Positions 19,856-58,969 of a stretch of 64,000 bases of DNA are shown here, one piece after another; within the stretch, counting starts at the first letter, position 1; the number at the start of each line of letters is the position of its first letter. Below the pieces are notes generated by a model. That model ran no database searches. It saw only the letters and a program-made list of their open reading frames with translations, and was not told the origin of the DNA. Made by a program: the position numbers and the translations under genes. Source of the DNA: Candidatus Nanoarchaeia archaeon (lineage in GTDB: Archaea > Nanobdellota > Nanobdellia > Woesearchaeales > JANQNE01); the NCBI GenBank assembly GCA_028279725.1, contig JANQNE010000011.1, positions 25,872 through 89,871 of the forward strand, read 5' to 3'.

Positions 19856-19865
19856 TGGTGAAAAG

Positions 19866-21701: not shown

Positions 21702-21703
21702 AA

Positions 21704-23281: not shown

Positions 23282-23282
23282 A

Positions 23283-24782: not shown

Positions 24783-24806
24783 TTTTTCCTCCCCTATCCC
24801 TCTTTT

Positions 24807-25421
24807 TTATTTTTTGACTATAACTTTTCTTCCTTCAACCTTTATCTTTCCTTCTCCAAAAAGCTGTATAGCTTTAGGGTAAAGCTCTTTTTCTAATGTC
24901 TGGACCTTTTCTTTCAATGAATCTACTGTCTCGTCGTTCTCTATGTCTACTGTTCCCTGCATTATTATAGGTCCTGTGTCCATTCCTTCGTCAACAAAGT
25001 GGATTGTGCATCCGCTGACCTTACATCCATAGTTAAGGATGTCTTCATGTACTGACCTGTCCATTCCTGGGAATGAAGGCAGTAGTGAAGGATGAATGTT
25101 CATTATCCTGTCTTTATATTTGTTTGCAAACCATGGGCTAAAAAGACGCATATAGCCTACAAGGACTAAAAGTTCTACTTCTTCCTGGTCTAAGATCTCT
25201 GCAACTCTTTTGTCGTAGCTTTCTCTTGTGTCTTCATCTTTTTTGTACAATTCTATTCTTGTCTTGAATCCCTGGTTTTGTGCTCTTTCGATAGCATAGC
25301 ATTCTTTGTTTGCTAGGACAATCTTTAATTCTGCATCAAGCTCTTTGTTCTTTATAGCATCCATTATAGCCTGAAGATCTGTTCCGTTTGTTGATGCCAT
25401 TACAGCTATTTTTATCGTCAT
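24807..25421 (-). CDS. purN: phosphoribosylglycinamide formyltransferase (folate-dependent)
   Basis: [53 protein letters not shown]. Confidence 0.9.
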
Positions 25422-26287: not shown

Positions 26288-27445
26288 CTAAAAATGTGCA
26301 AAGCATCTTTCTGTAGTATAGACCATTGCCATATCATGATCATTTGCTGCTTCAACAACCTCTAGGTCTTTTACAGAACCTCCTGGCTGTATTATTGCAG
26401 TTATACCTTGATTTGCTATAAGGTCAACTGAATCTCTGAAAGGAAAGAATCCATCTGATGAGATGACTGCTCCTTTTAGGGGATTTTCTGACAGTTTTTC
26501 TTTTGATGCTATGACATTTAATGAATCATATTCAATATTTTCCCTATCCATTGCTTTTTGGTATGCTTTTAGGATAGCCTGCTCAACAGCTCCAACTCTT
26601 TCTTGCTGTCCTGAGCCTATTGATAGGGAAACACCATTCTTAACAATAACAACACCATTACTTCTTACACCTAGGTTGATGTACCATGATGTTAGCAGGT
26701 CTTGGAGTTCCTGTATTGAAGGCTCTCTTTTTACTGAAACTTCTTTTTCATCTGTGTTTATTGTCGGATGTGTTATAAGATCTGATGGATCTTTTATCTT
26801 GCATAAGTAAGGTTTTTGGATGATTAATCTTCCTGCACCCATTATTTTGACGTCGAAGAGTCCTGTTGTGTCATCTCCAGCAAATTTTGGAACTTTGTCT
26901 AGGTTTTCGAATGTGAGCAGTCTCATGTTTTTCTTTTCGCTCAGGATATCTTCTGCTTCTTTCTGGAATCCAGGAGCTGCAACAGCTTCAACATAGCTTG
27001 TCATTATCTCTTCTGCTGTTTCTTTGTCAACTTCTCTGTTGAAAACTACTACTGAGCCGAATGCACTTCTTGCATCAGCATCTCTTGCATTTTTGTAGAT
27101 GTCTTTCAATGAGTTGTCCTGATATTGAGTTGCAAACCCCGAAGGTATTATGTGTTTCATAACGCAAACTGAAGGATGATTGAAGAACTTCAGTATTTCC
27201 ATAGCTCTTATTACATCCATTACATTTGTTGCTGATAATCCACCTTTTCCTGATTTTAGAAGCTGAATATTTGTAAGGTCAGCTATTGTTGATCCTTTGA
27301 ACTTGTATTCTGCTCCTGGCTGATTTGGATTTTCTCCATATCTTAGATCCATCTCTTTGACTAATTCTAACGGCAGTTCATCCGGATAGTCTCCAGCATT
27401 TACTGTCTTGTACATATTTTTTAGGTCGCTTAAGTTTTCTCCCAT
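26288..27445 (-). CDS. purH: AICAR formyltransferase domain protein (C-terminal half of PurH as a separate gene)
   Basis: LRYGENPNQPG, the GSGQQERV-type block (IGSGQQERVGAV) and C-terminal ERCFAHF. Confidence 0.85.
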   Translation of the reverse strand: MGENLSDLKNMYKTVNAGDYPDELPLELVKEMDLRYGENPNQPGAEYKFKGSTIADLTNIQLLKSGKGGLSATNVMDVIRAMEILKFFNHPSVCVMKHIIPSGFATQYQDNSLKDIYKNARDADARSAFGSVVVFNREVDKETAEEIMTSYVEAVAAPGFQKEAEDILSEKKNMRLLTFENLDKVPKFAGDDTTGLFDVKIMGAGRLIIQKPYLCKIKDPSDLITHPTINTDEKEVSVKREPSIQELQDLLTSWYINLGVRSNGVVIVKNGVSLSIGSGQQERVGAVEQAILKAYQKAMDRENIEYDSLNVIASKEKLSENPLKGAVISSDGFFPFRDSVDLIANQGITAIIQPGGSVKDLEVVEAANDHDMAMVYTTERCFAHF

Positions 27446-27446
27446 T

Positions 27447-28169
27447 CTAATCCCTCTTTATTTCATAGCATTTCTCAAGATCTGCTATCTCTGTTTTTTG
27501 TATCAGCTTATTGACTGATGCCATATAATCTGTTATCATGCTTGATGCTTTTTTTGCCAAGTTAAGGCGAGTTGCAAGTGAGATCGCTCCGTTGTTTGTG
27601 TCTAGTTCTTCAATTAGTGTTTTGTATTCTGACGGATCTGTTATCAATGCAGTGCTTACTAATGCTTTTCTTGCATTATGACTCATGCTTGGCCCTCCTA
27701 CGTCTATATTTTGCCTTAGGATCTCAAAAGTTGAGTCAGGCTTTGCCATCATCTCATCCAATGGATAAAAGTTGACTATTAATGCATTGATGTAGTTGAT
27801 GTTATGTTCTTTCATGAATTCATCGTCTGATTCTGTATGATTGTGTGCTAAAAGTCCTGCATGTATAACTGGATGTAGTGATTTAACTAATCCTGTCTTC
27901 ATCTCAGGGTATTTTGTAACTTCTGAGACTTCTACAACATTAAGCCCTGCTTCTTTTACTATCTTGTATGTTCCTCCTGTTGATATGAACTGGACATCTG
28001 GGTTTTTTTCTGCTATAAAACCTAAAAGTCCGTTTTCTGGAATTCCTTCTATTATTGGTCCATCTTTTCTTTTGTTGGAAACTAATCCTTCTTTGTTTGT
28101 ACAGCTGACCAATACATGCTTTAGCTGTATAAGGTCATCAACTTTTTTTACAAATTCAATTTCAGCCAT
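27447..28169 (-). CDS. purH: IMP cyclohydrolase, MGS-like domain protein (N-terminal half of PurH as a separate gene)
   Basis: VLVSCTNKEG, FISTGGTYK, GLVKSLHPVIHAGLL, VNFYPL, NIDVGGPSM. The TAG stop is followed after 1 nt by the ATG of the AICARFT gene, in another frame. Confidence 0.8.
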   Translation of the reverse strand: MAEIEFVKKVDDLIQLKHVLVSCTNKEGLVSNKRKDGPIIEGIPENGLLGFIAEKNPDVQFISTGGTYKIVKEAGLNVVEVSEVTKYPEMKTGLVKSLHPVIHAGLLAHNHTESDDEFMKEHNINYINALIVNFYPLDEMMAKPDSTFEILRQNIDVGGPSMSHNARKALVSTALITDPSEYKTLIEELDTNNGAISLATRLNLAKKASSMITDYMASVNKLIQKTEIADLEKCYEIKRD

Positions 28170-28738
28170 TATTTACACCTTATCACTCTTTTTTCGGTAA
28201 TTATCATATCCATCGGGATGTCATAATCTTCTGTTGGTATATTTTTTGTTATCTGTTCTTCAAATGCAAGCCCTATTTTTAGGGAGTTTCTGTCTTTCAG
28301 GAATCTGTCGTAAAAACCTTTTCCGAATCCTATCCTTGCTCCGCTTTGGTCAAAAGCGATGCCTGGGACGAGGACGATGTCCAGGTTTTCTTTGTATTCC
28401 TCTTTTTTGATTGGTTCGAGTACTCCGAAGTTCCCTTCTTTTAGGTCATTGAAGTCAGATAATTTTGATATCTTTATGTTGTTTTCTTCGACAAATGGGA
28501 TGATTACTGTCTTTTGCTGCAGTTGTTCTTTGATTAATTCTATTGTGTTTACCTCACTTTTTAGTGAAAGGTAAGACATCACTATGTTTGCTTTTTTGAA
28601 CTCATCCAGATCTTTTAGATGTTGGATGATTGTCTTGCTTTTTTCTGAGATCTGTTCTTCCGGTATGTTATCTCTTATGGACCTTATGGTGTTTCTGATC
28701 TCTTGTTTGTTTATTCTGTTCATAGTGCGATTCTTCAC
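28169..28738 (-). CDS. 5-formyltetrahydrofolate cyclo-ligase
   Basis: LVPGIAFDQSGARIGFGKGFYDRFL is the MTHFS signature. Confidence 0.8.
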   Translation of the reverse strand: MKNRTMNRINKQEIRNTIRSIRDNIPEEQISEKSKTIIQHLKDLDEFKKANIVMSYLSLKSEVNTIELIKEQLQQKTVIIPFVEENNIKISKLSDFNDLKEGNFGVLEPIKKEEYKENLDIVLVPGIAFDQSGARIGFGKGFYDRFLKDRNSLKIGLAFEEQITKNIPTEDYDIPMDMIITEKRVIRCK

Positions 28739-31404
28739 TTTTGCCTATCAAGCTCTTTTTTTGCAATATCTTTTCTAAAAAACATGCCGTCGAAGTTTAT
28801 GTCATTTATTTTTGTGTATGCTGTATCGACGGCATCTTTAAGGGTTGATCCTAATGTGATTACATTTAATACTCTTCCTCCATTTGTGAGGATCTTTCCG
28901 TTATCTTTCTTTGTTCCAGCGTGAATCACCTGTGCTCCACTTATGTTATCTAAACCTTTTATCTCTTTTCCCTTTTCATATGAACCAGGATAACCTCCTG
29001 ATGCTAGTACTATGCTTACGCAGTGTTTTTCAGACCAGTCTAGTTTCATAGCTCCTAGTTTCTTGTCTATTACTGCGTTCATTACGTCAAGTATATCATT
29101 GTTTAATCTTGGAAGGATAACCTGTGTTTCCGGATCTCCAAATCTGCAGTTGAATTCTAAGATCTTTAGGCCGTCTTTTGTTTTCATAAGTCCGACGTAG
29201 AGGACTCCTTTGTATTCTATGCCTTCTGCTTTTGTTCCAGCTATGAATGGCTTAATTATCTTTTCTTCCATCTCTTTTTCAAGTCCGTCTAATATTGGTG
29301 CTGGTGAGTAAGCTCCCATCCCTCCTGTATTAGGGCCTTTGTCTCCTTCATAGATTGGTTTGTGATCCTGTGAATATACCATTGGCTTGAATGTTTCTGA
29401 GTCTACGAAGACTAAGTAGGACCCTTCTTCACCTACAAGACATTCTTCTACAACTATTGATGAAGATGCATCTCCGAATTTGTTTGCTTTTAGGCATTCT
29501 TCTGCAAACTTTACTGCTTCTTCTACTGTGTTTGCGACAAGAACTCCTTTTCCAGCAGCTAGTCCGTCTGCTTTTACGACAATTGGTGCTCCCTGCTTTT
29601 CGATGTATGCTTTTGCTTTTTCAAAATCAGTGAATTCATCAAATTCAACTGTTGGAAGATTATATTTTTTCATGAATCTTCTTGCAAATGCTTTTGATCC
29701 TTCAAACTGTGATGCTTTTTTGTTAGGGCCGAAGACTCTTATCCCTGCTTTTTCAAGTTCGTCAGCTGCTCCGTTAACTAGCGGAGCTTCTGGACCTATG
29801 ATTGCAAGATCTATCTTCTTTTCTTTTGCAAACTTGACTAAAGCTTCATTATCATTTTGGTCGATATCATGACAGCAAGCTACCTGGCCAATACCTGGAT
29901 TTCCCGGGACTGCGTATAGTTTGTTTAATCTGTCAGATTCTGTGACTTTTAATGCAATAGCATGCTCTCTTCCGCCTGAACCAACTATCATTACGTTAAG
30001 TTTGGTGTCTAATGTTGTCTGCTCTTCTGTTCTCTGGCAACCAAGGCATTGCTGCTGTGATTCTGATACTGGTTCTGGGTATTCTCCTGTTAAACATGCC
30101 ATACATACATCCCTCCTTGTAGCATTCTTGATATTATCAACTGTTGCATATACTAAATTATCTGCTTCAAGATATTCTCTTATCTGTTCTATTGATTTAT
30201 CTGAAGCTATAAGCTCTTTTTTTGTCGCCATGTCTATCCCATAGAAGCATGGGAATTTTATAGGAGGACAAGCAGAAACAAATGTAACTTTTCTAACTCC
30301 TCCATCTTTTAATGTTCTTACTATCCTTTTTGATGTTGTTCCCCTTACAATGCTGTCATCAACTACAGCAACACTCTTGTTTTCAAGTATACTTATTACA
30401 GGCCTTAGTTTTCTTCTTACTGAGTCATGCCTTGTCTTTTGTGATGACATTATGAATGTTCTTTGTATATATTTATCTTTGATCAGACCTTCCCTATATT
30501 TTACAGCAAGATCTTCACTTAATTTTATAGCAGCTGTCCTTCCTGAATCTGGAACTGGGACTACAACATCGATGTCTTTTTGGTCCATCTGCTCGCTCAT
30601 CAGTTTTCCAAGAGCTAATCTTGTCTTGTATACTGATCTGTTCTCTATCATGCTGTTCGGGCTTGCAAAATATATCCATTCAAACATACAATGAGCTTTT
30701 TTCTCCTGTTTTAGGATCTTGCTTTCTATAACCAAGTCTTTTGAGATAAAAACAGCTTCTCCTGGCTCTATATCTCTGACATAATCATGATCAATAACCT
30801 GAAATGCTACAGTTTCTGAAGCAAATATGTATGAATCTCCTCTCTTTCCGAGAACTAAAGGCCTTATGCCTCTTGGATCTCTTATCGCGAATATACCTTT
30901 GTCTGCTATCATTCCAACAATTGAGTAAGCTCCTCTTACCTTATCCATGAAGTGCTTTGCAGCTGCAAAGAAATCTCCATGCTGTTCGTAATGCTCTGCG
31001 AATATTCTTAGAAGAACTTCACCGTCAACAGAGGTTTCAAGATGTTTTCCTTTTTTTTGGAATTCTTCTTTTAGGTCGAAGTAGTTTATTGTGTTTCCGT
31101 TCTGAGCCATAGCAACTTTTGGGTTGATCTTTGTTGTAAGAGGTTGTGCGTCGCACAACATTCCTTTTCCCTGTGTTGCATATCTTGTGTGGCCGATGCC
31201 CATCTTCCCTTGTAATAGGTTTGCGTCTCTTGCCTTGAATACTCTGTGAACAGCATCCATCTCTTTTTTTGTGAAGAATTCGTCTTTTACGTTTGTTACT
31301 ATGCCGCATGCATCCTGGCCTCTATGCTGCAATGACATCAAGCTAGTTACTGCATCCTCAAAAACTTCATCATCTTTTGAAACAATACCAATAATTCCGC
31401 ACAT
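28735..31404 (-). CDS. purF-purD: fusion protein: amidophosphoribosyltransferase PurF (N) + phosphoribosylamine-glycine ligase PurD (C), 889 aa
   Basis: N: MCGIIGIV, HTRYATQG, VDDSIVRGTT, CMACLTGEYP. C: VMIVGSGGREHAIA, VVKADGLAAGKGV, EFNCRFGDPE, TNGGRVL. Confidence 0.9.
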   Translation of the reverse strand: MCGIIGIVSKDDEVFEDAVTSLMSLQHRGQDACGIVTNVKDEFFTKKEMDAVHRVFKARDANLLQGKMGIGHTRYATQGKGMLCDAQPLTTKINPKVAMAQNGNTINYFDLKEEFQKKGKHLETSVDGEVLLRIFAEHYEQHGDFFAAAKHFMDKVRGAYSIVGMIADKGIFAIRDPRGIRPLVLGKRGDSYIFASETVAFQVIDHDYVRDIEPGEAVFISKDLVIESKILKQEKKAHCMFEWIYFASPNSMIENRSVYKTRLALGKLMSEQMDQKDIDVVVPVPDSGRTAAIKLSEDLAVKYREGLIKDKYIQRTFIMSSQKTRHDSVRRKLRPVISILENKSVAVVDDSIVRGTTSKRIVRTLKDGGVRKVTFVSACPPIKFPCFYGIDMATKKELIASDKSIEQIREYLEADNLVYATVDNIKNATRRDVCMACLTGEYPEPVSESQQQCLGCQRTEEQTTLDTKLNVMIVGSGGREHAIALKVTESDRLNKLYAVPGNPGIGQVACCHDIDQNDNEALVKFAKEKKIDLAIIGPEAPLVNGAADELEKAGIRVFGPNKKASQFEGSKAFARRFMKKYNLPTVEFDEFTDFEKAKAYIEKQGAPIVVKADGLAAGKGVLVANTVEEAVKFAEECLKANKFGDASSSIVVEECLVGEEGSYLVFVDSETFKPMVYSQDHKPIYEGDKGPNTGGMGAYSPAPILDGLEKEMEEKIIKPFIAGTKAEGIEYKGVLYVGLMKTKDGLKILEFNCRFGDPETQVILPRLNNDILDVMNAVIDKKLGAMKLDWSEKHCVSIVLASGGYPGSYEKGKEIKGLDNISGAQVIHAGTKKDNGKILTNGGRVLNVITLGSTLKDAVDTAYTKINDINFDGMFFRKDIAKKELDRQK

Positions 31405-31406
31405 TT

Positions 31407-32231
31407 TTATCTATCCTTAAAATAGTCAACAGCATTCTGGAAAATCCTGAAGTTTGAGCTAATTAAATCAGGGATCTCTTTGTTTTCTCTTTTAGCGATC
31501 TCTTTTTTCAGATGGAATTCCGGCTCGCTGATTGAGTATATTGCTCTTTCTGGATGAGGCATCATTCCCATTAGCCTTCCAGTCTTGTCGCAGATAGCTG
31601 CTATATCATTTAAAGCTCCATTAGGGTTGATAGGGTAAACATTTTCTGCATCATCTCCTGCTTCATTGCAGTACGTGAAAACTATCTGGTTGTTCTTTTT
31701 TAATTCTTCAAGTGTGTTTTTATCGCATGTGAATCTTCCTTCTCCATGAGCTATAGGGAGATGTGTCTGTTCTATTCCTTTTGTGAATATACAATTAGAA
31801 TTGTTGTTTTTTATGTTTACCCATAAGCATTCATATCTGTTGCTTGTGTTTGATTCTAATGAGCTGATTCTTTTTCCGTAGTCTCCATCTGTAGCGAATA
31901 ATCCTAAATGGGTCATGACCTGGAATCCGTTGCAGACTCCGAGTATCAATTTTCCTGAGTTTATGAACTCTAAAAGATCTTCCCAAAGGTTGTTTTTTAT
32001 CTTGTTTGCAAAAGCATTTCCTGAACCTGTGTCATCTCCATACGAGAATCCTCCTGGAAACATAATTATATTGTAGTCAGACATCTTTTTCTTTTTTGAG
32101 ATAAGGTCGTTTATGTGGACAATTTCGCATTCAGCTCCTGCTTTTTCAAAAGCATGAGCACTTTCTTTCTCGCAGTTGATCCCATATCCTGACATAATCA
32201 ATACTTTTGGTATCATATTAATAGTCCTCAA
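31407..32231 (-). CDS. purQ: phosphoribosylformylglycinamidine synthase, glutaminase subunit
   Basis: FPGGFSYGDD, GVCNGFQ (catalytic Cys), MMPHPER. Confidence 0.9.
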   Translation of the reverse strand: MRTINMIPKVLIMSGYGINCEKESAHAFEKAGAECEIVHINDLISKKKKMSDYNIIMFPGGFSYGDDTGSGNAFANKIKNNLWEDLLEFINSGKLILGVCNGFQVMTHLGLFATDGDYGKRISSLESNTSNRYECLWVNIKNNNSNCIFTKGIEQTHLPIAHGEGRFTCDKNTLEELKKNNQIVFTYCNEAGDDAENVYPINPNGALNDIAAICDKTGRLMGMMPHPERAIYSISEPEFHLKKEIAKRENKEIPDLISSNFRIFQNAVDYFKDR

Positions 32232-35178
32232 ACCTTTTTTTGTATATTTTTTCTAATTTTTCAATGTCTGTCTTGATTACTTGTTCTTCTTTGTTGTTTA
32301 TTATGAACTCATTGTCTTCTTTTACTGTTCCTATCTTTGCTATGTCGAAGTCGCTCATTGCTTTTACAAATTCATCCTGGTCTTTAGGGTTGATCGTTAC
32401 GATGAATCTGGACTGTGATTCTGAATAGAATATCTTTTCTATTGGCAGGTTATCGTTTGGTGCTTTGCTTAAGTCTGTTTCCGCTCCAAGCTGTCCTGCG
32501 ATTGCCATCTTTGCTAATGTGATCAGTAGTCCGCCTTGATTGACTGGAGCACATGCACTGAACATTCCTTTTTTGTTTAACTGGAACATTGTTTCGTAAA
32601 GTTTTCTTGCTTTTTGTGCATCTACTTTTGGTGACTTTGCTCCGAACTTATCGAATGCTCTATAGAACTCGCTTCCACCACATTCGTCTTTCGTCATTCC
32701 TATGGTGTATATCAGATCTCCCGGAAGCTTGAAGTCCATCGTTATTGTATCTTTTGCATTGTCGATTATGCTTATGCTTGAGATCATCAATGTTGGAAGT
32801 ACTGAAATCTTTATTGAGTTATCTTTTTCGTCAAATCCTTTGAAATCGTTGAACATGCTGTCTTTTCCTGAGATAAATGGTGTTTTGTAGATGGTTGCAT
32901 AATCATAGCATGCTTGTGCTGCGTCTTTTAGCTGGCCCATACGTTCTGGCTCGTTTGAACTGCACCAGCAGAAGTTGTCCATGAGTGCAAGATGGTCTAT
33001 GTTTCCGCCGACAGCAACACAGTTTCTTATTGAAGTGTCTATAGCACATGCTGCCATATCATAGCAGTTTATCTCGCTTAGTCTTGGATAAAGGCATTGT
33101 GACATAACAGCTGCTTTATTGCTGCTGAACAAAGGCTTTACAACTGAAGCTGCTCCGTTGACTCTGCCTTTTCCCTGTAATGGTTTTATGACTGAGTTAT
33201 TCTGAACTTCATGATCATACTGTTTTGATATAAATTCAAAGCTGCAGTTGTTGTGATTTCCCAGGATCTTTTCGAACAGTGCTTTTTGGTTGTCTATTGT
33301 TATTTTTGGCTCTTCTGTCCTGTAAGGATAAGGTTTTGTGATAAGTTTTCTTTTTGGAAGTCCGTCATGTAAGAATTCCATGTCTAAGTTGAATATTTCT
33401 TTTCCGTTGAAATTCACTATAGCTTTTTTTGTGTCGTTGAAATTTCCAATTACTGTTGATTCAACTCCTCTGCTTTCCATAAGGTCCATGAATTCTTTTA
33501 GCTTGTTGTCTGGAACTGATAATGTCATACGTTCCTGTGATTCTGAAATCCATGTTTCCCAAGGCGGAAGTCCTGGATATTTTAGAGGAACTTTTTCTAA
33601 GTCTACTATGAAACCACCACATTCTCTTGCCATCTCTGCAACTGAACAGGATAATCCTCCTGCTCCATTGTCTGTTATGCTATTGTAAAGTTCTTTATCT
33701 CTTGCTTCTTTTACAATTGCATCCGAGAGTTTCTTTTGAGTGATCGGATCTCCTATCTGAACAGCTGTTGCTGGTGAGCCTTCATCCATCTCTTCTGATG
33801 AGAATGTTGCTCCGTGAATACCATCTTTTCCAACTCTTCCGCCGATCATGACAATGTTGTCTCCTGGCTGAGCCTGTTTGTCCTGGCTTGGATTTCCGTT
33901 AGGAAGTTTTCTTGGTAAAAGTCCTACAGTTCCTACGAATATGAGAGGTTTTCCCTTGTAGCAATCGTCGAAGTATACAAATCCTGTTGGTGTTGGAATA
34001 CCTGAGCAGTTTCCTCCTACATTTACTCCATGTATTACTCCATCCATGATCTTTCTTGGTGTTAAAGCTGGGTTTGTCTTGTTCTTTCCTCTGTAAATGA
34101 ATGTCTTGTCTTCTGGTCTTCCTAAGCAGAAGCCGTATTTGTTAACTATTGGAAGTGCGCCCATACCGAAGCCGATAGTGTCTCTGTTAACTCCTACAAT
34201 TCCAGTTATAGCTCCTCCAAATGGATCTAATGCTGAAGGACTATTATGTGTTTCAGCTTTGTCTGTGATCATCCAGTCGTCATTGAATATTATTCCTCCT
34301 GAATTGTCTTTGAATACTGATAAGCAGAAATCTTTATCTCCTAAGTCTTCTCTTACTTTTATTGTCGCTGCTTTGATGAACTTTTTGTATATTCCTTCTT
34401 TTATGTCATCTATCTCTCCTGCAAATAAAGTGTGTTTGCAGTGTTCTGACCATGTTTGTGCGATTGATTCCAGCTCAATATCAGTTGCTTTTCTTCCTTC
34501 TTTTTTGTAATAAGCCTGTATTGCGTGTAAGTAGTCTAAGTCTAAAGCTAAAGGGCCTCTTCTTGTGTTTGTTACAGGATCAGGAATTCCTTTTTTTCCA
34601 AGTTCTGTAAGAATTTCATCACTGACATTCAGATCAATTGCAATTACGTTTTGTTCTTCTTTTATGTTTACTTTTGGAACAATATAATCCATGCCGTTGT
34701 CTTCAGTGTATTGTTCTGCTGATTTGATGTGGAAACGTTCTATTAAAGTGTTGATTAGTTCTTTTGCAATTATTTCTATGTCTTCTTTCTTTAGGTTGTC
34801 TGATTTTATTAAGATCAGTTTAGAAGTGAATACTTTGTTTCTTCCAATGTTGATCTTGAATAGGTCGTTTATGATTTCTGTAGTTGTGTTTGCTACATTG
34901 TCTGTAACTCCTGGCAAGAATCCCAGTTCTAATGCCCAGCTAAACTCTTTTTTTGATGGTGAGTTGATCCTTGGAGTTTCTACGATAGGATTGTGTAATG
35001 CGTTAGCTATTGCTGTTATTTGTTCTGCTGAGAAATCATACTGGATAGTGTATACTTTGCTTACTTCAATAGAGGTTTCGAAGCCCAGCGAGAACAGCTT
35101 TTTCTCTAATATTTTGGCTTCAGAGCCCTTCTCCTTGGAATCTATAGAAATCCTAAATATCTGTCCATTTTCTTGCAT
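32218..35178 (-). CDS. purL: phosphoribosylformylglycinamidine synthase II with an N-terminal PurS-like extension (no glutaminase domain)
   Basis: Start placed at MQENGQIF, with SD AGGGGGTTGATC just upstream; the track ORF extends to 35214. ETHNSPSALDPFGGA, PurL PurM-like repeats, and an extra N-terminal domain of roughly 200 aa. Confidence 0.85.
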   Translation of the reverse strand: MQENGQIFRISIDSKEKGSEAKILEKKLFSLGFETSIEVSKVYTIQYDFSAEQITAIANALHNPIVETPRINSPSKKEFSWALELGFLPGVTDNVANTTTEIINDLFKINIGRNKVFTSKLILIKSDNLKKEDIEIIAKELINTLIERFHIKSAEQYTEDNGMDYIVPKVNIKEEQNVIAIDLNVSDEILTELGKKGIPDPVTNTRRGPLALDLDYLHAIQAYYKKEGRKATDIELESIAQTWSEHCKHTLFAGEIDDIKEGIYKKFIKAATIKVREDLGDKDFCLSVFKDNSGGIIFNDDWMITDKAETHNSPSALDPFGGAITGIVGVNRDTIGFGMGALPIVNKYGFCLGRPEDKTFIYRGKNKTNPALTPRKIMDGVIHGVNVGGNCSGIPTPTGFVYFDDCYKGKPLIFVGTVGLLPRKLPNGNPSQDKQAQPGDNIVMIGGRVGKDGIHGATFSSEEMDEGSPATAVQIGDPITQKKLSDAIVKEARDKELYNSITDNGAGGLSCSVAEMARECGGFIVDLEKVPLKYPGLPPWETWISESQERMTLSVPDNKLKEFMDLMESRGVESTVIGNFNDTKKAIVNFNGKEIFNLDMEFLHDGLPKRKLITKPYPYRTEEPKITIDNQKALFEKILGNHNNCSFEFISKQYDHEVQNNSVIKPLQGKGRVNGAASVVKPLFSSNKAAVMSQCLYPRLSEINCYDMAACAIDTSIRNCVAVGGNIDHLALMDNFCWCSSNEPERMGQLKDAAQACYDYATIYKTPFISGKDSMFNDFKGFDEKDNSIKISVLPTLMISSISIIDNAKDTITMDFKLPGDLIYTIGMTKDECGGSEFYRAFDKFGAKSPKVDAQKARKLYETMFQLNKKGMFSACAPVNQGGLLITLAKMAIAGQLGAETDLSKAPNDNLPIEKIFYSESQSRFIVTINPKDQDEFVKAMSDFDIAKIGTVKEDNEFIINNKEEQVIKTDIEKLEKIYKKRFEDY

Positions 35179-35269
35179 GATCAACCCCCTATAGTTAGCT
35201 GAAAAATGACTCATATATAAATATTATGGCTACCAGCCAGTACTAAAGATATACTCAAGAATATAGTTT

Positions 35270-41909: not shown

Positions 41910-44900
41910 ATGAAGGATTTAAGCAGATATCTAGATAAATTTAGAGGCGATTCTGTTAGGTTAGATAGACCTAGCCTTGATGATGATATCCGGACTATAG
42001 TATTCAATTATGAGCCTTTTGTTCTTGATTGGAAAAATTTTAGGAAACTGGAAAGAGATACTGAAAGAGAAGCAGAAGAAGTCTATAAGCAAAGAGCTCT
42101 GAATGGAGACACCTATACTGATATTGAAAAACAGTTTAAAGATGACCCAAAAGGAAGATATGATGCTACGAAAGATAGAGACTGGGTTGAAGGAAAGGTA
42201 AAAGCGTTCAGGCCGGAGATAAAAAGAGCTCTTGAGAGCAAATCAATAATAGGTATTAGACCTGACCAGGAAGATCTTGAGTCTATCTGTATGGATAGGA
42301 ACATCACTTTAGTTGGAAAAGAAGTTGTAGGTATTAATTCTGAATTTATGGTGGGAAATGACATCATACTTTTGGAGACCGAAGTATATGAAAAGGTCTG
42401 TGAGAGGCTAAAAGAAAGCGATGATAAATCAAAAGAGAATGCAGTAGCTACAATCAAGGAAGTTATTGAAGAAGAACTTACTAAAGAGAAACCAAAACTG
42501 CTGATAGTTGATAATGAAATGGGAGAAAGATTGAGGATGACTGAAATAGCTCTAAAATGCGGGTTTAGCACTCGAATAGCTGAAAATCCAGAACAGGCAT
42601 TTCAGATGCTTGAAAAAGAAAAAGACATTGGTACGATAATAACAGGTGATATATTTCCTGGAACTAATGGGCTTGATTTCATAATGGAGCTTAGAAAGAG
42701 AGGAGGAGAACAGCATGCAATACTTGTATCAGATGAGCAGTTCATAGAAAAGGAATATGAAGGAAAAAACCATAAAGAACTGCTTCAGGCAAATGTGAGA
42801 GTTATTGAGAAAGGAGGAAATACAGATCCAGAGATAAGAAGTGAATTTCTTAATGCTAAAGGTAAGATGGATCTTATGGCTGAGAAGACAGATGTACGTA
42901 TAGAGGAGAAAGATTCAAAGATACCAACCTTTGCAGATTTTGAGAATAAGATAAGAGATTACAACAGCAATTCTGGAAAGCTTATAATGCTTGATTCGAA
43001 TGATATCAATGAAGTTATTACATCATTCAAGAGCAAGTTTAAAACACCCGAAGATTATATCACACTTTCAACTTTGAATAATGAAGATATGAAATACATA
43101 TTGACTGTTCCACGTATACTTAAGATTGAAGAGAATGGTGTGGAAGATAAAGCTATCGACCATATGATGGATGTTTTGGATCCTGAGGAAAGAAATCTAG
43201 GAAATGTTCTTGGAAAATTCTATGAAAAGATAAAAGAAGGATGGACTGGAGAAGATGTACAGGAGCTGCTTCGTTCAATCCTACGAAAAGAAGATGTAGG
43301 AGAATCTATCAAGAGTATTTACAGAAATAGAAAGGGTATGGATGATGAAGTAGTCATTGAAAGGAATATGAGAGAAGGTTCTGATTTTAGAACTTCTATA
43401 TTTTTCAGCTATAAGAATGCAGGAAGAGTGGCTGAAAGATACAATCATTATAGTGAGGATAAAAGGATAAAGTATAATCTTGGAATTACAACAGAAAGAG
43501 TAAGCTGGGTTGCAAAGAACAATGCACTGCTTGCCAGGTATCTTGAGATGTTTGGTGCTGCAAAAGGGAAAGTTGAACATGACAGTCTTGTCAATATAAT
43601 AAATCAGGACAGAAAGGATGATGTTGTGAGCATCAAGGAATCAAAGATTACAGTAGATTCAAAATATCATGTTTACGAAGTTACATCAACTTATGGAGAA
43701 AATGAAAAAAGACACAGCATAGTAAAATTCATAACTAATCCAGATTCATTTGAAAGGGAAGTCTATAACTATAATTATTTCAAGAGATTTGACGGAATAA
43801 ATGATGCGAATAGTCTGGTAACTACAACAGTGGAGGATGAAGAAGGAAACAAGAATTATGTTGTTGTACTTAATTTTAAGGAAGGAGTGGAGCCTAGACA
43901 GAATCTTATGACTACTTTTGAAAATATAAGAGAGAGTATCAAGACAGGAGGAGATGATGTTAAGAAAGAGCTTAATGATAAGGCAAATAAAGTAGGGATA
44001 CAGGCTATGTCTGATGTAGGAAGAGTACATGGTGTTGCTCCTGAACTAAAAGGAGATACATACACTTCATTCTATGGTGATTTTAAAAAATACCTTCATT
44101 TCAGGATAGGAGAGTTCCAAGATAATCTTACTGACCTTGTAAAACAGCTTGCTACTGAATTTAAAGATCATATACAAAAGAACTCATCAAGAGTTAAATC
44201 AAACTCTTATTCACTTGTTGAATATCTAGCAAGCATGGATACAACTTTCTATAAGGATACTGTAACAAAGAACATGACTCCTATGGGGGAGGAAGGAGGG
44301 AAGAACTCAGGCAGGTTTGCATCAGTTGATTATGGAGAAGTCAGAAAACTTCCACTGACTTTTGATGTTGCAAATGCAGTACATACTATGTACATACCTG
44401 ATATCAGGGTTGCTGAGGAAGATGGAACAATAGATCAGATGCTGATATCCTATCTTAGTGGATATTGTGAAGGAAGAACATCGTACAATAATGAAGTTAT
44501 GAAGAAGAAAAATGTAAAAAAATATCTTGTAGATAATCTTGAAAGGATGAGAAAAGGGACAGGAAATGAAAGTGTAAGGGAGAATCTATCTGATCTTCTT
44601 AAGATAATAAAGAAGGAAGAGCCAAAACATAAGAGCAGGAAAAAGAAGATGGCATTTTATAAGGATATCATGTCTGGATTTGCTGAGTCAAGCGGATCAG
44701 ATGAGTTAAAAAGAGTTGTAGCGAATGAGATCAAATATTTTGATGAAATAGAAGATAAACCTGACCCATATTTTGGGAAGCTTAAGATCAGGACAAGCAC
44801 TGCGAAAGGAAGAAGAAACAAAAGATATGAGATCATAAGCGATAAATTAAAAGGACCAAGAGATAGGTGGTCAACTAAATTGAATGATGCGTTCGAAAGA

Positions 44901-45212
44901 TTCAAAGCAGATTTCTATGTAAGTATGGCATACAGAGGACAGGTTATAGCAAATACTGTTCCAGTCTATATATTATCAGATCATAATATCAACAAGCAGA
45001 GGAGGGATTATTTTTCATCTGTTATGGGAAATACTACTCAAGCATTAGAGATACTTAGTGAGAAATATATCGGAAAAGAAAAAGGAATGTACTTAAGGAG
45101 AGAGCTAGATGGCGATAAGCTTAATGAAGTTAAGAATGCACTTTCAGATATCAGGAATATATTTGAAAAGATAGATCCGGGGGCTGTTAAGAATGCCGAA
45201 TACAAAGCTTGA
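41910..45212 (+). CDS. 1100-aa multidomain protein: unknown N-terminus, receiver (REC) domain, possible protein-kinase-like/APH-like domain, unknown C-terminus
   Basis: REC: KLLIVDNEMGER...IGTIITGDIFPGTNGLDFIMELRK...HAILVSD. Kinase-like: HSIVKFITNPDSFEREVYNY, VVVLNFKEG, FYKDTVTKN (HxDxxxxN-like), ASVDYGE (DFG-like). Confidence 0.6.
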   Translation: MKDLSRYLDKFRGDSVRLDRPSLDDDIRTIVFNYEPFVLDWKNFRKLERDTEREAEEVYKQRALNGDTYTDIEKQFKDDPKGRYDATKDRDWVEGKVKAFRPEIKRALESKSIIGIRPDQEDLESICMDRNITLVGKEVVGINSEFMVGNDIILLETEVYEKVCERLKESDDKSKENAVATIKEVIEEELTKEKPKLLIVDNEMGERLRMTEIALKCGFSTRIAENPEQAFQMLEKEKDIGTIITGDIFPGTNGLDFIMELRKRGGEQHAILVSDEQFIEKEYEGKNHKELLQANVRVIEKGGNTDPEIRSEFLNAKGKMDLMAEKTDVRIEEKDSKIPTFADFENKIRDYNSNSGKLIMLDSNDINEVITSFKSKFKTPEDYITLSTLNNEDMKYILTVPRILKIEENGVEDKAIDHMMDVLDPEERNLGNVLGKFYEKIKEGWTGEDVQELLRSILRKEDVGESIKSIYRNRKGMDDEVVIERNMREGSDFRTSIFFSYKNAGRVAERYNHYSEDKRIKYNLGITTERVSWVAKNNALLARYLEMFGAAKGKVEHDSLVNIINQDRKDDVVSIKESKITVDSKYHVYEVTSTYGENEKRHSIVKFITNPDSFEREVYNYNYFKRFDGINDANSLVTTTVEDEEGNKNYVVVLNFKEGVEPRQNLMTTFENIRESIKTGGDDVKKELNDKANKVGIQAMSDVGRVHGVAPELKGDTYTSFYGDFKKYLHFRIGEFQDNLTDLVKQLATEFKDHIQKNSSRVKSNSYSLVEYLASMDTTFYKDTVTKNMTPMGEEGGKNSGRFASVDYGEVRKLPLTFDVANAVHTMYIPDIRVAEEDGTIDQMLISYLSGYCEGRTSYNNEVMKKKNVKKYLVDNLERMRKGTGNESVRENLSDLLKIIKKEEPKHKSRKKKMAFYKDIMSGFAESSGSDELKRVVANEIKYFDEIEDKPDPYFGKLKIRTSTAKGRRNKRYEIISDKLKGPRDRWSTKLNDAFERFKADFYVSMAYRGQVIANTVPVYILSDHNINKQRRDYFSSVMGNTTQALEILSEKYIGKEKGMYLRRELDGDKLNEVKNALSDIRNIFEKIDPGAVKNAEYKA

Positions 45213-53075: not shown

Positions 53076-54496
<1,421 letters not shown>

Positions 54497-54503
54497 TTCT
54501 TGT

Positions 54504-55823
54504 TTATATAATATTTAATTGTAATCTTCTTTCTATCTCTTTACCAATCAACCTGTAATATTCTTTTAATGTAATTTCTCCATAATCTTTTCTTGCAGCC
54601 CTGTCGATGTAATAACACAGAGTGGTATTTAAGTAGTGATCATACATTCCTGTTGTTCCTAACAGGCTATCAAGTTTTCTAACACCTATATCAATCACTT
54701 CGATATAACGCGGAATTGGCATCTTATTATGCCTTACTAAGATGCTAGGGTCCTTACCATAGATATATTTCTTCATTTTCTTTGCATAAAAATCAAGCAG
54801 TTCTCTTCTGTCAACCGGAACTTTAACATTCAGATGGTGGGATTTAACACATATGCATCTTTCTTCTAATCTTTGCCCAGTCCTGTAATCATAAACATGT
54901 TTTAATGCGATAACTTCATAGTTTTTTTCTCTTTTTCTGATTGCAGCAAGTTCATCATCTGTTAGTTTTATAGCAACAGCATTAAATTTATGACCTATGG
55001 AAGCAGAAATGTTCAGTACAGCAACTCTATTTGCCTTAATATCTTCATCTGTTTCCCATTTCTTTCTGGTGGCGATCTTGTTAAATACTCTTTTATAACC
55101 TACCACCCACACAGGTGTTAATCTGGCTTTGAATTCTGCAGCTAAATCCTTTATAGGAGTTCCTGCTTTTTCTAAAGTTGATCTTAGTTCATCTATAGTT
55201 TCATCTGCATTCATCAGGCTGCCATAGCCAACCAAAGAATATGTGAAATTTCTTGGGTATTCTTCTTCAATATTTTTGGTCTCTTCTTTAGCAATCTCTG
55301 CTAATTCCTTTTCTTTTCCCAGGATTATCCCTTCTTGTCTGATGAGGGTCTCAAATTCATGAAAGTTCTTGATGAAAGAAGGGGGATTATCTAGGTGTTT
55401 TTTTAACCACCCCATCTGTTTTTGTAATACTGAAACCAGATTCCTTAGACTTTCGTGAAGGATATTAAGATCTGAATATTCCCGAAGAGTTAATTTAAAC
55501 AACTTCCTATTAGTTTTCCATCTAACCAGCAGGTCCTTTAAGATGTTTAATGCCTTACTTGAATATTTTTCCTCTGTTTTCTCATAATTTTCTTCAAGCC
55601 CAATAACCCGTAGAAGTTTCCTTGTTTCATTAAAGATGGCCTTTCCACCAAATGCAGTGATTTTACCTTTTTTCTGCTCGTCTCTACATCTTTTGATAAA
55701 AGCCAGTTTTCTCCTGTACCTGTCTTCCAAAGAATAAAATACCTTTAGCATGTCCTTTAAATTATCATCCAGTTTGTTTAACATATTAGAACTTTTTTTT
55801 GAGATGAATATGTCAAATATCAT
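54504..55823 (-). CDS. protein with a C-terminal ChaC/gamma-glutamylcyclotransferase-like domain and a helical N-terminal extension of roughly 200 aa
   Basis: LVGYGSLMN, VVGYKRVFN and IRKREKNYEV resemble ChaC blocks (YGSLxW, GxxRxF, RExxxY). Start placed at MIFDIF, 25 nt downstream of TATA ttttatata; the track ORF uses a TTG at 55877. Confidence 0.45.
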   Translation of the reverse strand: MIFDIFISKKSSNMLNKLDDNLKDMLKVFYSLEDRYRRKLAFIKRCRDEQKKGKITAFGGKAIFNETRKLLRVIGLEENYEKTEEKYSSKALNILKDLLVRWKTNRKLFKLTLREYSDLNILHESLRNLVSVLQKQMGWLKKHLDNPPSFIKNFHEFETLIRQEGIILGKEKELAEIAKEETKNIEEEYPRNFTYSLVGYGSLMNADETIDELRSTLEKAGTPIKDLAAEFKARLTPVWVVGYKRVFNKIATRKKWETDEDIKANRVAVLNISASIGHKFNAVAIKLTDDELAAIRKREKNYEVIALKHVYDYRTGQRLEERCICVKSHHLNVKVPVDRRELLDFYAKKMKKYIYGKDPSILVRHNKMPIPRYIEVIDIGVRKLDSLLGTTGMYDHYLNTTLCYYIDRAARKDYGEITLKEYYRLIGKEIERRLQLNII

Positions 55824-55917
55824 ATAGGTGGGAAATATGTGGGTGAGGTATATAAAATTTTCTACTCGTCTGATCAAAAGAAAAAATATTTAAACCCCTG
55901 TTACTTTAGCCTTATAA

Positions 55918-56928
55918 ATGGAAAAACGAAAAAGAGGAAGGAAAGACAAAAAGCTAGTTCTGTTCAGGAAGTTGAAAAAGATAGAGAGTGAGGTATTTAA
56001 TGACGGGTTTACATACCTGGTAAGCTTATTGAGATATCCAAATCACAGGAGTTTCCAGTACGGGACTTTAGAGCATATATACAAGAAAAGGAATGAGGGT
56101 TCTTTCAAGAATTTCTTTTTTGATAAGAAGTTGTATCAGCTTGTTAAGAAGGAGATTGAAATTCTTTATCCAAAATATAAAAGGATAAGGATAATCATAA
56201 CAAGGTATGGTATAATGGTGTGTGATAATTATAGGCCTAATAACTTTAATGTGTTGCTTCTGACTATCCATGCCGGAAGGTGGGCTCCTGAGAATATCGA
56301 AAAGAAGATGAGATTGACCAGGACAGGAAGGTTTAGGGAGGAAGATATCGACTCTGACAGGATATATTCTAATATTGTTCTTGAGAGAGGAGGTATATGG
56401 ATCAACTCTAAACTTTCAAGATATGTCTGTGACCTTAACAGGCCACAGAACAGGTGCATATATTTCAAGAAAGATGAGAAATGGATAGATAACGATATCT
56501 GGGATGATGATCTTACAAATAAAGAGATAACACAGATAAACAGGTGGCATCAGGATTTTTATGTTACACTACATAAAGTGTTGGAGACGTATAAGTTCAA
56601 TATAATATTTGACGGGCATACTATGAAAGACAGGCCTGGAAGACCAACGATAAGTTTTGGTACAAAGCATATATCTCCATTCTATATGCCTGTTGTGAGA
56701 GCGATGAAAAACAGGCTTAAGAAAGTGGGGTATAAAGATACTTTTTTCAACAGGCCTTATGGCGGTGGTTTCATTTTGAAATGGCTGAAGACCAAATTCC
56801 AGGATAAGTTTATATTCTCTATGGAGATAAACAAGAAAGAATATATGAATAAAGACAGGACTAAGACAAAGAAGGATAAGGTTGAAAGGTTAAGCCATGA
56901 GATAACACAGATATTTGATATAAAATGA
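55918..56928 (+). CDS. N-formylglutamate amidohydrolase (FGase) family protein
   Basis: LLLTIHAGRWAP, YVCDLNRPQN and NIIFDGHTM correspond to the HAG / DxNR / DxH(S/T) metal-site blocks of the FGase family. Confidence 0.55.
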   Translation: MEKRKRGRKDKKLVLFRKLKKIESEVFNDGFTYLVSLLRYPNHRSFQYGTLEHIYKKRNEGSFKNFFFDKKLYQLVKKEIEILYPKYKRIRIIITRYGIMVCDNYRPNNFNVLLLTIHAGRWAPENIEKKMRLTRTGRFREEDIDSDRIYSNIVLERGGIWINSKLSRYVCDLNRPQNRCIYFKKDEKWIDNDIWDDDLTNKEITQINRWHQDFYVTLHKVLETYKFNIIFDGHTMKDRPGRPTISFGTKHISPFYMPVVRAMKNRLKKVGYKDTFFNRPYGGGFILKWLKTKFQDKFIFSMEINKKEYMNKDRTKTKKDKVERLSHEITQIFDIK

Positions 56929-58325
56929 AGATAATAAACACGACAAAGAAGCAGAGCAATAAAAGGCCTTTGAAAAAGGCAAAGACCGGGCTGGAAGTAG
57001 AGATGTTTGTCATAGATAAAAAAGGAGATATGACACAGAAAGGATATTCTCTTGTGAAAAATGTCAAGAAAATAGAGGGAGAAGTTGAGATTGTAAAAGA
57101 AGTCGGAATGAATATGATCGAGTTCGGGTGTTATCCTAGTGTTAATACATACAACCCCGCGTTGGAACTGATCGAGTCTATAGAGAAGACAATAAAGATT
57201 GCAAAGAAAGATGGATTATTGCTATATCCTTTTGGAACTTATCCTGGAACCTCTGAATCAAAGCTTACTCCAGACACAAGAGGGCACTATAAGATCAAGA
57301 AGAAGATATTTGGAGATAAGAAATTTCCATTAGCAACAAAAGCGATAGGATTTCATCATCACTATGCTCTTCCTAAAGGGGTGTTTAATTACGAGAAGAA
57401 GGAATTAAAATTATTGATTGACAGTAAGTTGAAGAGAAGTTTGTTGAATTGCTATAATTTTGAGATCGCTATAGATCCTATATTGACGTTATTGACGCAA
57501 TCATCTCCATTTTTTGAAGGAGAACAGCTTGCTAAGGATTCGAGGATGCTGATATATAGGGGAGGAAAGAAACTAAAGTATAAGAAAGGGCTGTATCATA
57601 AGTTCCAGATATTAGGTGGGCTTCCTCCATATAAGCAGACTGAGACTGACCTGATAAGAAGTATCAAGAGGAGACAGCAGAAATGGAAGAGGCTTATAAG
57701 AAAGGCTGACAAGACTGTGAAGTTCAGGAAGATGTATCCGTTCAAGATGGATATAGGATGGAATCCTATAAAGATCAACAAGCATGGAACTTTGGAGGAA
57801 AGAGGGATGGACATGAACTACATGTCTATACTTCTTGGAGTCTCTGCTTTGATCAAGTTCTGTCTTAAGAAGATACAGAGAGATTTTATCGAGGTCATAC
57901 CTTCTGATATCGGGATAAAGGAGCCTTTCAAGATAAGGAAAGGTGTGATGTTTATCCCGCCGCATACACATATCAGGGAAAACTTACAGAAAGCCAGCGC
58001 TTATGAAGGATTTGATAATGATGAGCTTTACGAATATACAAAAGCATTCTATAAGCTTGCAAAGAGCTTGTCAAGAAAGATCTATTATCCTTTGTTTGAA
58101 AGGATCGAAGGGATGATAGAGAAAAGAAAGTCTGTCTCTGATGAGATCATCGATTATGCTAAGAGGAAGAAATTAATCAATGGTGATGGAAAGATATCAA
58201 ACAAGAATGCAAAAGTTCTTGCATTGTATCTGTCTAAGAAGTTTGAGAGGGACCTTAAGGAGACAAAGAAGATAGTAAAGGAGATAATGACGAAGCATAA
58301 AAGACAGATCAAGACTAAAAGATGA
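56925..58325 (+). CDS. carboxylate-amine ligase, glutamate-cysteine ligase family 2 (GCS2/YbdK-like)
   Basis: TGLEVEMFVIDKKGD, GFHHHYALP, ERGMD. Overlaps both neighbours by 4 nt. Confidence 0.6.
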   Translation: MKIINTTKKQSNKRPLKKAKTGLEVEMFVIDKKGDMTQKGYSLVKNVKKIEGEVEIVKEVGMNMIEFGCYPSVNTYNPALELIESIEKTIKIAKKDGLLLYPFGTYPGTSESKLTPDTRGHYKIKKKIFGDKKFPLATKAIGFHHHYALPKGVFNYEKKELKLLIDSKLKRSLLNCYNFEIAIDPILTLLTQSSPFFEGEQLAKDSRMLIYRGGKKLKYKKGLYHKFQILGGLPPYKQTETDLIRSIKRRQQKWKRLIRKADKTVKFRKMYPFKMDIGWNPIKINKHGTLEERGMDMNYMSILLGVSALIKFCLKKIQRDFIEVIPSDIGIKEPFKIRKGVMFIPPHTHIRENLQKASAYEGFDNDELYEYTKAFYKLAKSLSRKIYYPLFERIEGMIEKRKSVSDEIIDYAKRKKLINGDGKISNKNAKVLALYLSKKFERDLKETKKIVKEIMTKHKRQIKTKR

Positions 58326-58969
58326 TAAAGGCTATCGTATTTGATATGGACGGAGTAATAGTTGATTCTGAGAAGTTGCACTTTCAGGCCTGGAAAATTC
58401 TTTTTAAGCAGGAGAAAGGTATTGAGATCGATGAAAAATATTTTAAGAAGATGGTCGGAACTACAGATCTTTTTACAGTCAGACATTTTTTCAGGAAATA
58501 TAAGATAAGGGGAAATATCCAGGAATGGAGGATGAAGAAGAAAAGAATCATACTCAAGATGTTTAGGGAGAAAGGGAAGATCTTTCCAGGGGTTAAACAT
58601 ATTATCAGGAAGCTGAGCGCTAAGTATAAGATGGGATTAGCTACAGGAGCCTGGAGAGCATCAGCTAATGTTGTGATGAAGAAGTTTGATCTTAAGCAGT
58701 ATATCTCTAAGATGGTCACGAAAGAAGATGTCAGGAATCATAAGCCGCATCCTCAGGCTTATCAGAAGATGGCAAATCTTTTAGGGGTTGATGAGAAAGA
58801 GTGTGTTGTATTTGAGGATTCTGTGCCTGGAATATTGGCTGCAAAAAGAGCTAAATGCAAATGTATCGCTGTTACAAACAGCCATCCTGCAGCAAAGCTG
58901 AAGAAAGCTGACCTGGTTGTGAAGGATCTTAGGGATAAGAGGATAGGAAAGTTTATTAGTTCTTTATAG
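58322..58969 (+). CDS. HAD-IA hydrolase (beta-phosphoglucomutase-like phosphatase)
   Basis: IVFDMDGVIVDSE, GLATGA, HKPHPQAY, VFEDSVPGILAAKRAK. Confidence 0.8.
   Translation: MIKAIVFDMDGVIVDSEKLHFQAWKILFKQEKGIEIDEKYFKKMVGTTDLFTVRHFFRKYKIRGNIQEWRMKKKRIILKMFREKGKIFPGVKHIIRKLSAKYKMGLATGAWRASANVVMKKFDLKQYISKMVTKEDVRNHKPHPQAYQKMANLLGVDEKECVVFEDSVPGILAAKRAKCKCIAVTNSHPAAKLKKADLVVKDLRDKRIGKFISSL

Follow-up and report, generated by a model that had tools for sequence, protein, structure and literature searches.

DPANN archaea, with their minimal genomes, are considered to be without most biosynthesis. What might a tightly packed set of enzymes for amide bonds be doing in one of them? The question is raised by a locus in a 64,000-nucleotide stretch of a Candidatus Nanoarchaeia archaeon genome (contig JANQNE010000011.1; hereafter the window, meaning the whole stretch that was analysed). 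Here a gene for an ATP-dependent carboxylate-amine ligase of the GCS2/YbdK type lies between genes for an N-formylglutamate amidohydrolase (FGase)-family protein and a HAD phosphatase, and a gene that we call A, for a ChaC-like protein, is transcribed divergently. A preliminary description took the four genes as a single cluster of makers and breakers of gamma-glutamyl bonds. We find that the FGase and the ligase are a conserved core, a two-gene operon widespread in DPANN archaea, to which A is an accessory and the HAD phosphatase probably a passenger. We propose that this module both forms and breaks down a small-molecule amide of the gamma-glutamyl type, a reading that in our judgment stands about level with its negation.

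How well is the gene set conserved? We fetched 80 loci with relatives of the ligase from species-representative genomes, called and clustered their open reading frames (ORFs), and scanned them with purpose-built hidden Markov models (HMMs); ligase-neighbour counts were taken over 82 loci. The FGase gene adjoins the ligase gene directly in 31 of the 82 and lies within two genes of it in 36. By the latter measure it accompanies 26 of the 31 ligases that are at least 47% identical to the window's and 8 of the 48 that are more distant. Six distinct arrangements of position and orientation occur; the order found in the window, with the FGase directly upstream on the same strand, accounts for 21 of the 36 loci, and adjacency holds down to about 40% ligase identity. 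Around the closest relatives of the ligase (75% and 70% identity), the FGase is followed by the ligase and nothing else is common to the window. The operon spans Woesearchaeota, Nanoarchaeota, Aenigmarchaeota, Iainarchaeota and Nanohaloarchaeota. The adjacency counts and the loci of the closest relatives therefore mark the FGase–ligase pair as the conserved core, and the synteny that the preliminary description had supposed is real for these two genes.

Gene A behaves differently. Its contexts could be obtained for nine independent lineages, and in four of them it adjoins the ligase, each time in another gene order (arrowheads give the direction of transcription; loci carry L-numbers): A< FGase> ligase> in the window, FGase> ligase> A> C45/NTN-hydrolase> MarC> in L004 (A 63% identical to that of the window), FGase< A< ligase> in L053 and L089 (29%), and Amidohydro_2< A> ligase> in L002 and L003 (35%). 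In L001, L005, L006, L088 and L090, A sits amid unrelated genes. Recurrent adjacency with shuffled order, at 29–63% identity between the A proteins, argues for a functional link between A and the ligase, yet as an accessory and not a fixed component. An ORF of L001 (8354–9589) was considered as a hidden ligase and ruled out, as it has no similarity. In L006 (8092–9334) the A homologue is broken into three consecutive ORFs of 75, 99 and 236 amino acids (aa), which points to either a frameshift in a pseudogene or a faulty assembly.

The HAD phosphatase, by comparison, adjoins the ligase in 1 of the 82 loci, that of the window, and is missing from the loci of the closest ligase relatives (L091–L093). 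Because it stands next to the ligase nowhere else, it is probably a local passenger despite its 4-nt overlap with the ligase gene, and we ruled it out as a member of the system. Its assignment as a phosphatase is itself unambiguous (Pfam HAD_2, PF13419: 133.9 bits, E = 9e-39), with 142 bits against the cut-off of 153 for TIGR02009, the beta-phosphoglucomutase family. Clustering thus goes beyond chance for the FGase–ligase pair and for A, and not for the HAD gene; of the cluster of four that was first proposed, one pair stands, A keeps an accessory place and the HAD gene drops out.

We then asked what each enzyme is. The ligase is a bona fide member of the glutamate–cysteine ligase (GCL)/YbdK superfamily, in a separate and very divergent clade. 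Pfam GCS2 (PF04107) matches it at 22.3 bits against a cut-off of 21, over residues 22–131, and many of its homologues have a precomputed PF04107 match. A profile of 45 sequences finds YbdK (1r8g) in the PDB at E = 5e-6, with the GxExE, E..E, HxH and GTxExRxxD motifs aligned, and the residues invariant among the 45 (E24, E26, E59, E66, H144, H146, E291 and R293) align to YbdK motifs. With its AlphaFold2 (AF2) model, of predicted local distance difference test (pLDDT) score 94, Foldseek returns YbdK (1r8g, E = 1e-12, TMt 0.73–0.79) and plant GCL (2gwc, 8e-12), and far more distantly PafA/Dop and the glutamine synthetases (GS; E ~1e-4). A Pfam score above cut-off, a GS/GCL-type fold and the metal/ATP motifs together bear out the earlier call of a GCS2/YbdK ligase.

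The same protein does not group with the characterised YbdK enzymes, as the preliminary description had allowed that it might: its clade is restricted to DPANN archaea and a few bacteria of the candidate phyla radiation (CPR). It reaches no NCBIfam cut-off for YbdK or glutamate–cysteine ligase, with 23.3 bits against 176.4 for the best model, TIGR02050, and 14–19 bits against 332–437 for the remaining YbdK/GshA models. It shares with E. coli YbdK (PDB 1R8G) and haloarchaeal GshA a GS/GCL fold as well as acidic, His and GTxExR motifs, and by analogy it is expected to use their ATP-dependent acyl-phosphate mechanism. Unlike them, it runs on for about 100 further residues, having a helical extension at its C terminus; sequence profiles pick up its N-terminal third only, and in its gene context it has an FGase partner. 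Relatives of 39–41% identity lie on CPR-labelled contigs (L070, L083, L084, L048, L078, L081 and L082), where the ligase has no FGase neighbour. Genes of bacterial type flank the ligase in L084 and L070 (NAD-dependent DNA ligase LigA, MgsA/RarA), and the clade accordingly seems common to DPANN archaea and CPR bacteria.

The FGase, judged by its sequence, is an intact FGase-family metallo-amidohydrolase and not a HutG orthologue, since its Pfam match is full-length (PF05013: 72.4 bits against a cut-off of 28.9, E = 7.6e-20, profile positions 2–219 of 219) and its motifs are invariant, and its score of 24 bits lies far under the cut-off of 278.75 for the HutG equivalog (TIGR02017). The family call made earlier therefore survives both profile search and motif alignment. 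Eight residues are invariant among 30 relatives (H118, D143, R168, D172, N174, R175, H234 and E303), and the HSGT, RxxxDxNR, HSM and PYKG motifs align to the active site of the solved FGase 2q7s. The protein differs from HutG (PF05013; PDB 2Q7S) further in an additional N-terminal region of about 110 aa and in its company. No Hut genes were found among its neighbours in the window (ArgRS, CNNM transporter, PyrB/PyrI, Alba) or in the recurrent neighbour clusters, and its constant partner is the ligase.

Protein A is the least familiar of the set. Neither the whole protein nor its C-terminal domain alone has a Pfam or NCBIfam match at E <= 1, the ChaC/GGCT-like models PF04752, PF06094 and PF13772 included, and a PDB sequence search returned no match. 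A search of 5.8 billion protein clusters finds only 10 homologues, each from a DPANN-type source, and a profile of the C-terminal domain finds only 38 proteins among 1.84 billion representatives; distant relatives of this domain are small proteins of 150–210 aa. The link to known families comes through these relatives and through the predicted fold. Among 30 relatives scanned, eight match Pfam ChaC (best 1.6e-11), three GGACT and one AIG2_2. In the AF2 model the C-terminal domain (pLDDT 70–89) is mixed alpha/beta, with a fold that matches gamma-glutamylcyclotransferase (GGCT), AIG2-like proteins and ChaC2, and the eight best Foldseek matches are all of the GGCT fold, ChaC2 (6ky1) included, at probability 0.97–1.0.

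A YGSL loop and an "RE" motif are hallmarks of ChaC and GGCT active sites. In alignments of 15 and 30 sequences, Y200-G201-S202, R298-E299 and Y302 of A are invariant or near-invariant, as are R245, F247 and N281 among the 30, and from the resemblance of the motifs E299 may be the counterpart of the catalytic Glu. A comparison by hhalign of the A-family profile with an approximate human GGACT sequence aligned the YG[ST]L loop alone and was not used as evidence. We conclude that A is ChaC-like at the level of predicted fold and distant homology: the earlier ChaC-like call fails in direct profile searches and holds through the GGCT fold and transitive homology to Pfam ChaC. Compared with ChaC, GGCT, GGACT, AIG2-like proteins (PDB 2I5T, 3CRY, 6KY1, 2JQV) and BtrG, A has no direct profile match and is about twice the size, with a conserved N-terminal helical domain and C-terminal additions, and its extremely rare family (the 38 representatives) is linked to a GCS2-like ligase. 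It is a new, rare two-domain subfamily of the GGCT fold.

Built on the observed domain identities, folds, catalytic motifs, operon structure and recurrent gene linkage, the proposed scheme would run as follows. By analogy with GCL and YbdK, and in keeping with its conserved metal/ATP motifs, the ligase would spend ATP on turning a carboxylate, most likely that at the gamma position of glutamate, into an acyl-phosphate. Cysteine, another amino acid or a polyamine would then supply the amine for a gamma-glutamyl-type amide. The FGase-like enzyme, a predicted zinc amidohydrolase, would hydrolyse an N-acyl-amino-acid-type amide in the same pathway, a step that may free or recycle one of the ligase substrates and would not be a plain reversal of ligation. 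The tight coupling of a 5' hydrolase gene to a 3' ligase gene suggests sequential steps of this kind and not a futile make-and-break pair. In other lineages M20 or Amidohydro_2 hydrolases stand in for the FGase, which favours a general part for it as a deacylase. The GGCT-fold domain of A would break the gamma-glutamyl amide into 5-oxoproline and the free amine, for turnover or deprotection. Makers and breakers of gamma-glutamyl bonds, the wording of the preliminary description, would be a reasonable way to read such a set.

Several points weigh against this scheme. Characterised FGase-family enzymes act on N-formylglutamate or N-acyl-glutamate bonds, not on gamma-glutamyl bonds. The Pfam match of the ligase spans its N-terminal 110 residues only, and the protein is just 13–14% identical to characterised enzymes. 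The model of A is of moderate quality overall (mean pLDDT 66), its Foldseek E-values are borderline (1e-3 to 5e-2), and E299 was equated with the catalytic Glu of ChaC and GGCT by motif alignment, not by residue-level superposition. Most ligase loci are without A, and A stands alone in five of its nine lineages. The substrates are inferred throughout, and so are the way in which flux runs and what each hydrolase does.

What, then, might the product be? One answer is a low-molecular-weight thiol, either gamma-glutamylcysteine (gamma-GC) or a glutathione- or glutathionyl-polyamine-like derivative. The ligase would then be an analogue of GshA and A a ChaC-type degrader, with an ATP-grasp enzyme as second ligase and a flavoprotein reductase to recycle the disulfide. 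We consider this possible, if on balance unlikely. The nearest ligase folds, YbdK and plant GCL, speak for it, as do the matches of A relatives to ChaC, a glutathione-specific family. Partners seen in other loci point the same way. An ATP-grasp protein of 445 aa, of the glutathionylspermidine-synthetase, YgiC or circularly permuted type (Pfam GSP_synth, CP_ATPgrasp_2 and GSH_synth_ATP; PDB 3n6x at 6.5e-11 and GspS 2io7 at 1.7e-6), appears where the FGase is missing. It lies within three genes of the ligase in 10 of the 82 loci and mostly precedes an Amidohydro_2 hydrolase, itself within three genes of the ligase in 12. In L020, L021 and L032 the FGase, the ATP-grasp protein and the ligase are all present.

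In L067 (7992–10666) and L080 (1990–4661), moreover, the ligase gene overlaps a gene for a class-I flavin adenine dinucleotide (FAD) disulfide reductase tail to tail by 4 nt, which is a lead for a thiol product. CLNRGC and HPALPE motifs mark the reductase. Of the NCBIfam models it scores best with dihydrolipoyl dehydrogenase and mycothione reductase, in both cases under cut-off; no 2-oxoacid dehydrogenase E1/E2 genes were found near it. A peroxiredoxin gene lies a few genes from the pair in L080. The "reductase" of L073 was not counted with these two, as the flavoproteins there are different and shorter. Haloarchaea offer a precedent, with a GCS2-type enzyme as GshA and an E3/DHD-like protein as the gamma-GC reductase; the review that describes it also counted GshA-family matches in DPANN archaea, with no further analysis (PMC7278568). 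Three observations stand against a thiol: the reductase link is limited to one lineage, the FGase has no place in known thiol pathways, and a six-frame HMM scan of the 64-kb window found no thiol-specific partner, nor any ATP-grasp, Amidohydro_2, M20 or reductase partner.

A second answer is that the ligase gamma-glutamylates an imported amine or polyamine, for catabolism or protection, as in the Puu pathway or with butirosin BtrJ/BtrG, with hydrolysis (FGase-like enzyme, M20 or Amidohydro_2) or cyclotransfer (A) taking the glutamyl group off again at a later stage. Alternative deacylase-type partners do take the position of the FGase: an ArgE/DapE-type M20 deacylase directly adjoins the ligase in L058 and L063. 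The GGCT-fold proteins BtrG and GGACT are generally known to strip gamma-glutamyl groups from amines, and the fold of the ligase is also that of GS-like enzymes which gamma-glutamylate amines, with Foldseek matches to 1-naphthylamine GS. Against this, the ligase and hydrolase genes have no oxidase, aminotransferase or other modifying-enzyme gene conserved between them, and the ligase structure is nearer to GCL and YbdK than to GS-type amine ligases. We hold this answer to be quite unlikely.

Protein or peptide tagging in the manner of Pup is very unlikely in our view. Here the ligase would join a peptide or protein carboxylate to lysines, or glutamylate proteins; the FGase-like enzyme would detach the tag, and A, docking through its helical domain, would resolve epsilon-(gamma-glutamyl)lysine isopeptides. 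PafA and Dop do have the ligase fold, GGACT is generally known to act on gamma-glutamyl-epsilon-lysine, and the extra conserved helical domain of A (about 180 residues) could mediate protein contacts. The ligase, however, is much nearer to YbdK and GCL than to PafA (1e-12 against 1e-4), no conserved small tag-like ORF was seen beside it across the 82 loci, the small neighbours that are conserved are housekeeping genes (LSM and S8e-type), and linkage to a proteasome or ATPase was not found.

That the four genes are neighbours of unrelated function, though likely for the HAD gene alone and in keeping with its lack of conservation, with the five lineages in which A is by itself, and with compact DPANN genomes in which many unrelated genes overlap, is extremely improbable for the set, as adjacency by chance in a genome of about 1000 genes is expected well below 1% of the time per lineage and the FGase–ligase link survives its six arrangements, as the A–ligase link does its four. 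A role in defence was dropped because the PADLOC models returned nothing meaningful for any of the four proteins.

We return to the proposed module for a gamma-glutamyl-type amide and its relation to known biology. Counting all loci, the neighbours of the ligase comprise acid–amine ligases of two kinds, amidohydrolases of three kinds, a GGCT-fold protein and a disulfide reductase, a repertoire that matches what would be expected for the metabolism of small gamma-glutamyl peptides or amides. Pooled in this way, the loci resemble the gamma-glutamyl cycle, with a GCL-like ligase, a GspS/GSH-synthetase-like ATP-grasp protein, a ChaC/GGCT-fold protein, metallo-amidohydrolases and a class-I disulfide reductase. 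They differ from it in that no single locus holds the full set (the window has the ligase, the FGase and the ChaC-like protein only), that no gamma-glutamyltranspeptidase or 5-oxoprolinase was seen, and that the canonical cycle is without an FGase-family hydrolase.

The component families are all known. A 2009 computational survey of amidoligase neighbourhoods by Iyer, Abhiman, Burroughs and Aravind reportedly found GCS2/COG2170 ligases associated with peptidases or amidohydrolases and with ATP-grasp enzymes, and is said to have predicted that they make novel peptides or tags. Our literature search found no paper linking an FGase with a carboxylate-amine ligase, or an FGase with DPANN archaea. 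Three things appear to be new: a ligase clade specific to DPANN and CPR with a fixed FGase partner, the exchange of hydrolase and ligase partners between lineages, and the rare two-domain GGCT-fold protein linked to the ligase clade.

Some neighbours of the ligase and of A touch on transport and osmotic balance. In L004 (11317–12701) the FGase, ligase and A genes are followed on the same strand by genes for a C45/NTN-type acyltransferase-hydrolase (AAT family) and a MarC/LysE-type membrane protein, which could be an extra hydrolase and a product exporter. MscS channels, Na+/H+ and Na+/Ca2+ exchangers and a P-type cation ATPase recur near ligase or A genes; such ion- or osmotic-stress neighbours occur in L004, L005, L006, L043, L046–L049, L055, L062, L081, L082 and L086. 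L005 has, after A, inositol-1-phosphate synthase and genes resembling those for CDP-inositol and di-myo-inositol-phosphate synthesis. These neighbours may reflect an osmolyte role or mere local synteny.

The layout of the locus in the window is given in Table 1. ORF calls placed all four genes where they had first been put, and the two 4-nt couplings, FGase to ligase and ligase to HAD, are both ATGA overlaps of stop and start (56925–56928 and 58322–58325). The maximal ORF of gene A covers 54504–55877 on the minus strand. Its true start is the ATG at 55823 (MIFDIF...), which is kept in all full-length homologues and agrees with the public gene call, so the divergent spacer measures 94 nt. The divergent arrangement described earlier is right, its length of 95 nt is not. 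Within the spacer lie two TATA-like elements: TTTATATA on the minus strand (55856–55849), its 3' end 25 nt from the ATG of gene A, and the A/T-rich TATTTAAA (55887–55894), its 3' end 23 nt from the ATG of the FGase gene. As both fit the archaeal TATA consensus and spacing, the spacer probably carries two back-to-back promoters for leaderless or very short-leader mRNAs.

Table 1. Features of the ligase locus, in window positions
Feature	Position	Strand	Basis
Gene A, 439 aa, two-domain	54504..55823	-	ORF, start by homologue alignment
A, predicted C-terminal GGCT-fold domain (residues ~190-439)	54504..55256	-	structure model
A, predicted N-terminal all-helical bundle domain (residues ~1-178)	55290..55823	-	structure model
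Divergent intergenic region, 94 nt, two TATA-like elements	55824..55917		sequence reading
FGase-family (PF05013) metallo-amidohydrolase, 336 aa	55918..56928	+	ORF, Pfam
GCS2/YbdK-type ATP-dependent carboxylate-amine ligase, 466 aa	56925..58325	+	ORF, Pfam, fold
HAD-IA (beta-phosphoglucomutase-family) phosphatase, 215 aa	58322..58969	+	ORF, Pfam

The surroundings are those of a housekeeping region, with genes for ArgRS, a CNNM/CorC transporter, PyrB, PyrI, Alba and ProRS flanking the locus. The GC content of the window is about 36%, its best homologues carry Woesearchaeota or Nanoarchaeota labels, and no tRNA genes were found in its 64 kb. DPANN genomes are usually described as lacking nucleotide biosynthesis, which makes notable the genes for de novo purine (PurL, PurF-PurD, GuaB, PurA, GuaA) and pyrimidine (PyrB, PyrI) synthesis at 16540–35214 and 53124–54496. 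Among them, an 889-aa ORF on the minus strand (28735–31404) is an apparent PurF-PurD fusion, with PurF-type GATase_6/7 (65–201), Pribosyltran (267–379) and a complete PurD GARS_N/A/C (470–883); we know of no such fusion in a characterised organism. A 697-aa ORF on the plus strand (14331–16424) joins an AsnB-like glutamine amidotransferase/asparagine synthase to a Diphthami_syn_2 domain (diphthamide-synthase-type ATP pyrophosphatase), and an ORF of 1100 aa (41910–45212, plus strand) has no Pfam match at E <= 1e-5.

What would the module mean for these organisms? At its boldest, and decidedly improbable in this full form, the proposal is that DPANN archaea and some CPR bacteria make a gamma-glutamyl low-molecular-weight compound not known before, a glutathione- or glutathionylspermidine-like thiol or an osmolyte, by means of a private and highly divergent ligase, a dedicated FGase-type processing enzyme and a ChaC-like degrader whose extra domain would be a novel one for regulation or docking, joined in some lineages by a disulfide reductase of their own. 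If true, ultra-small symbionts would have an unrecognised system of redox or stress protection. The retention of the operon in minimal DPANN genomes implies a function that is probably important and is so far undescribed. Knowing the product would bring a further metabolite, whether thiol, osmolyte or modified amine, into DPANN physiology, and would give functions to three divergent subfamilies: the GCS2-like clade, the N-extended FGase-like clade and the two-domain GGCT-fold family.

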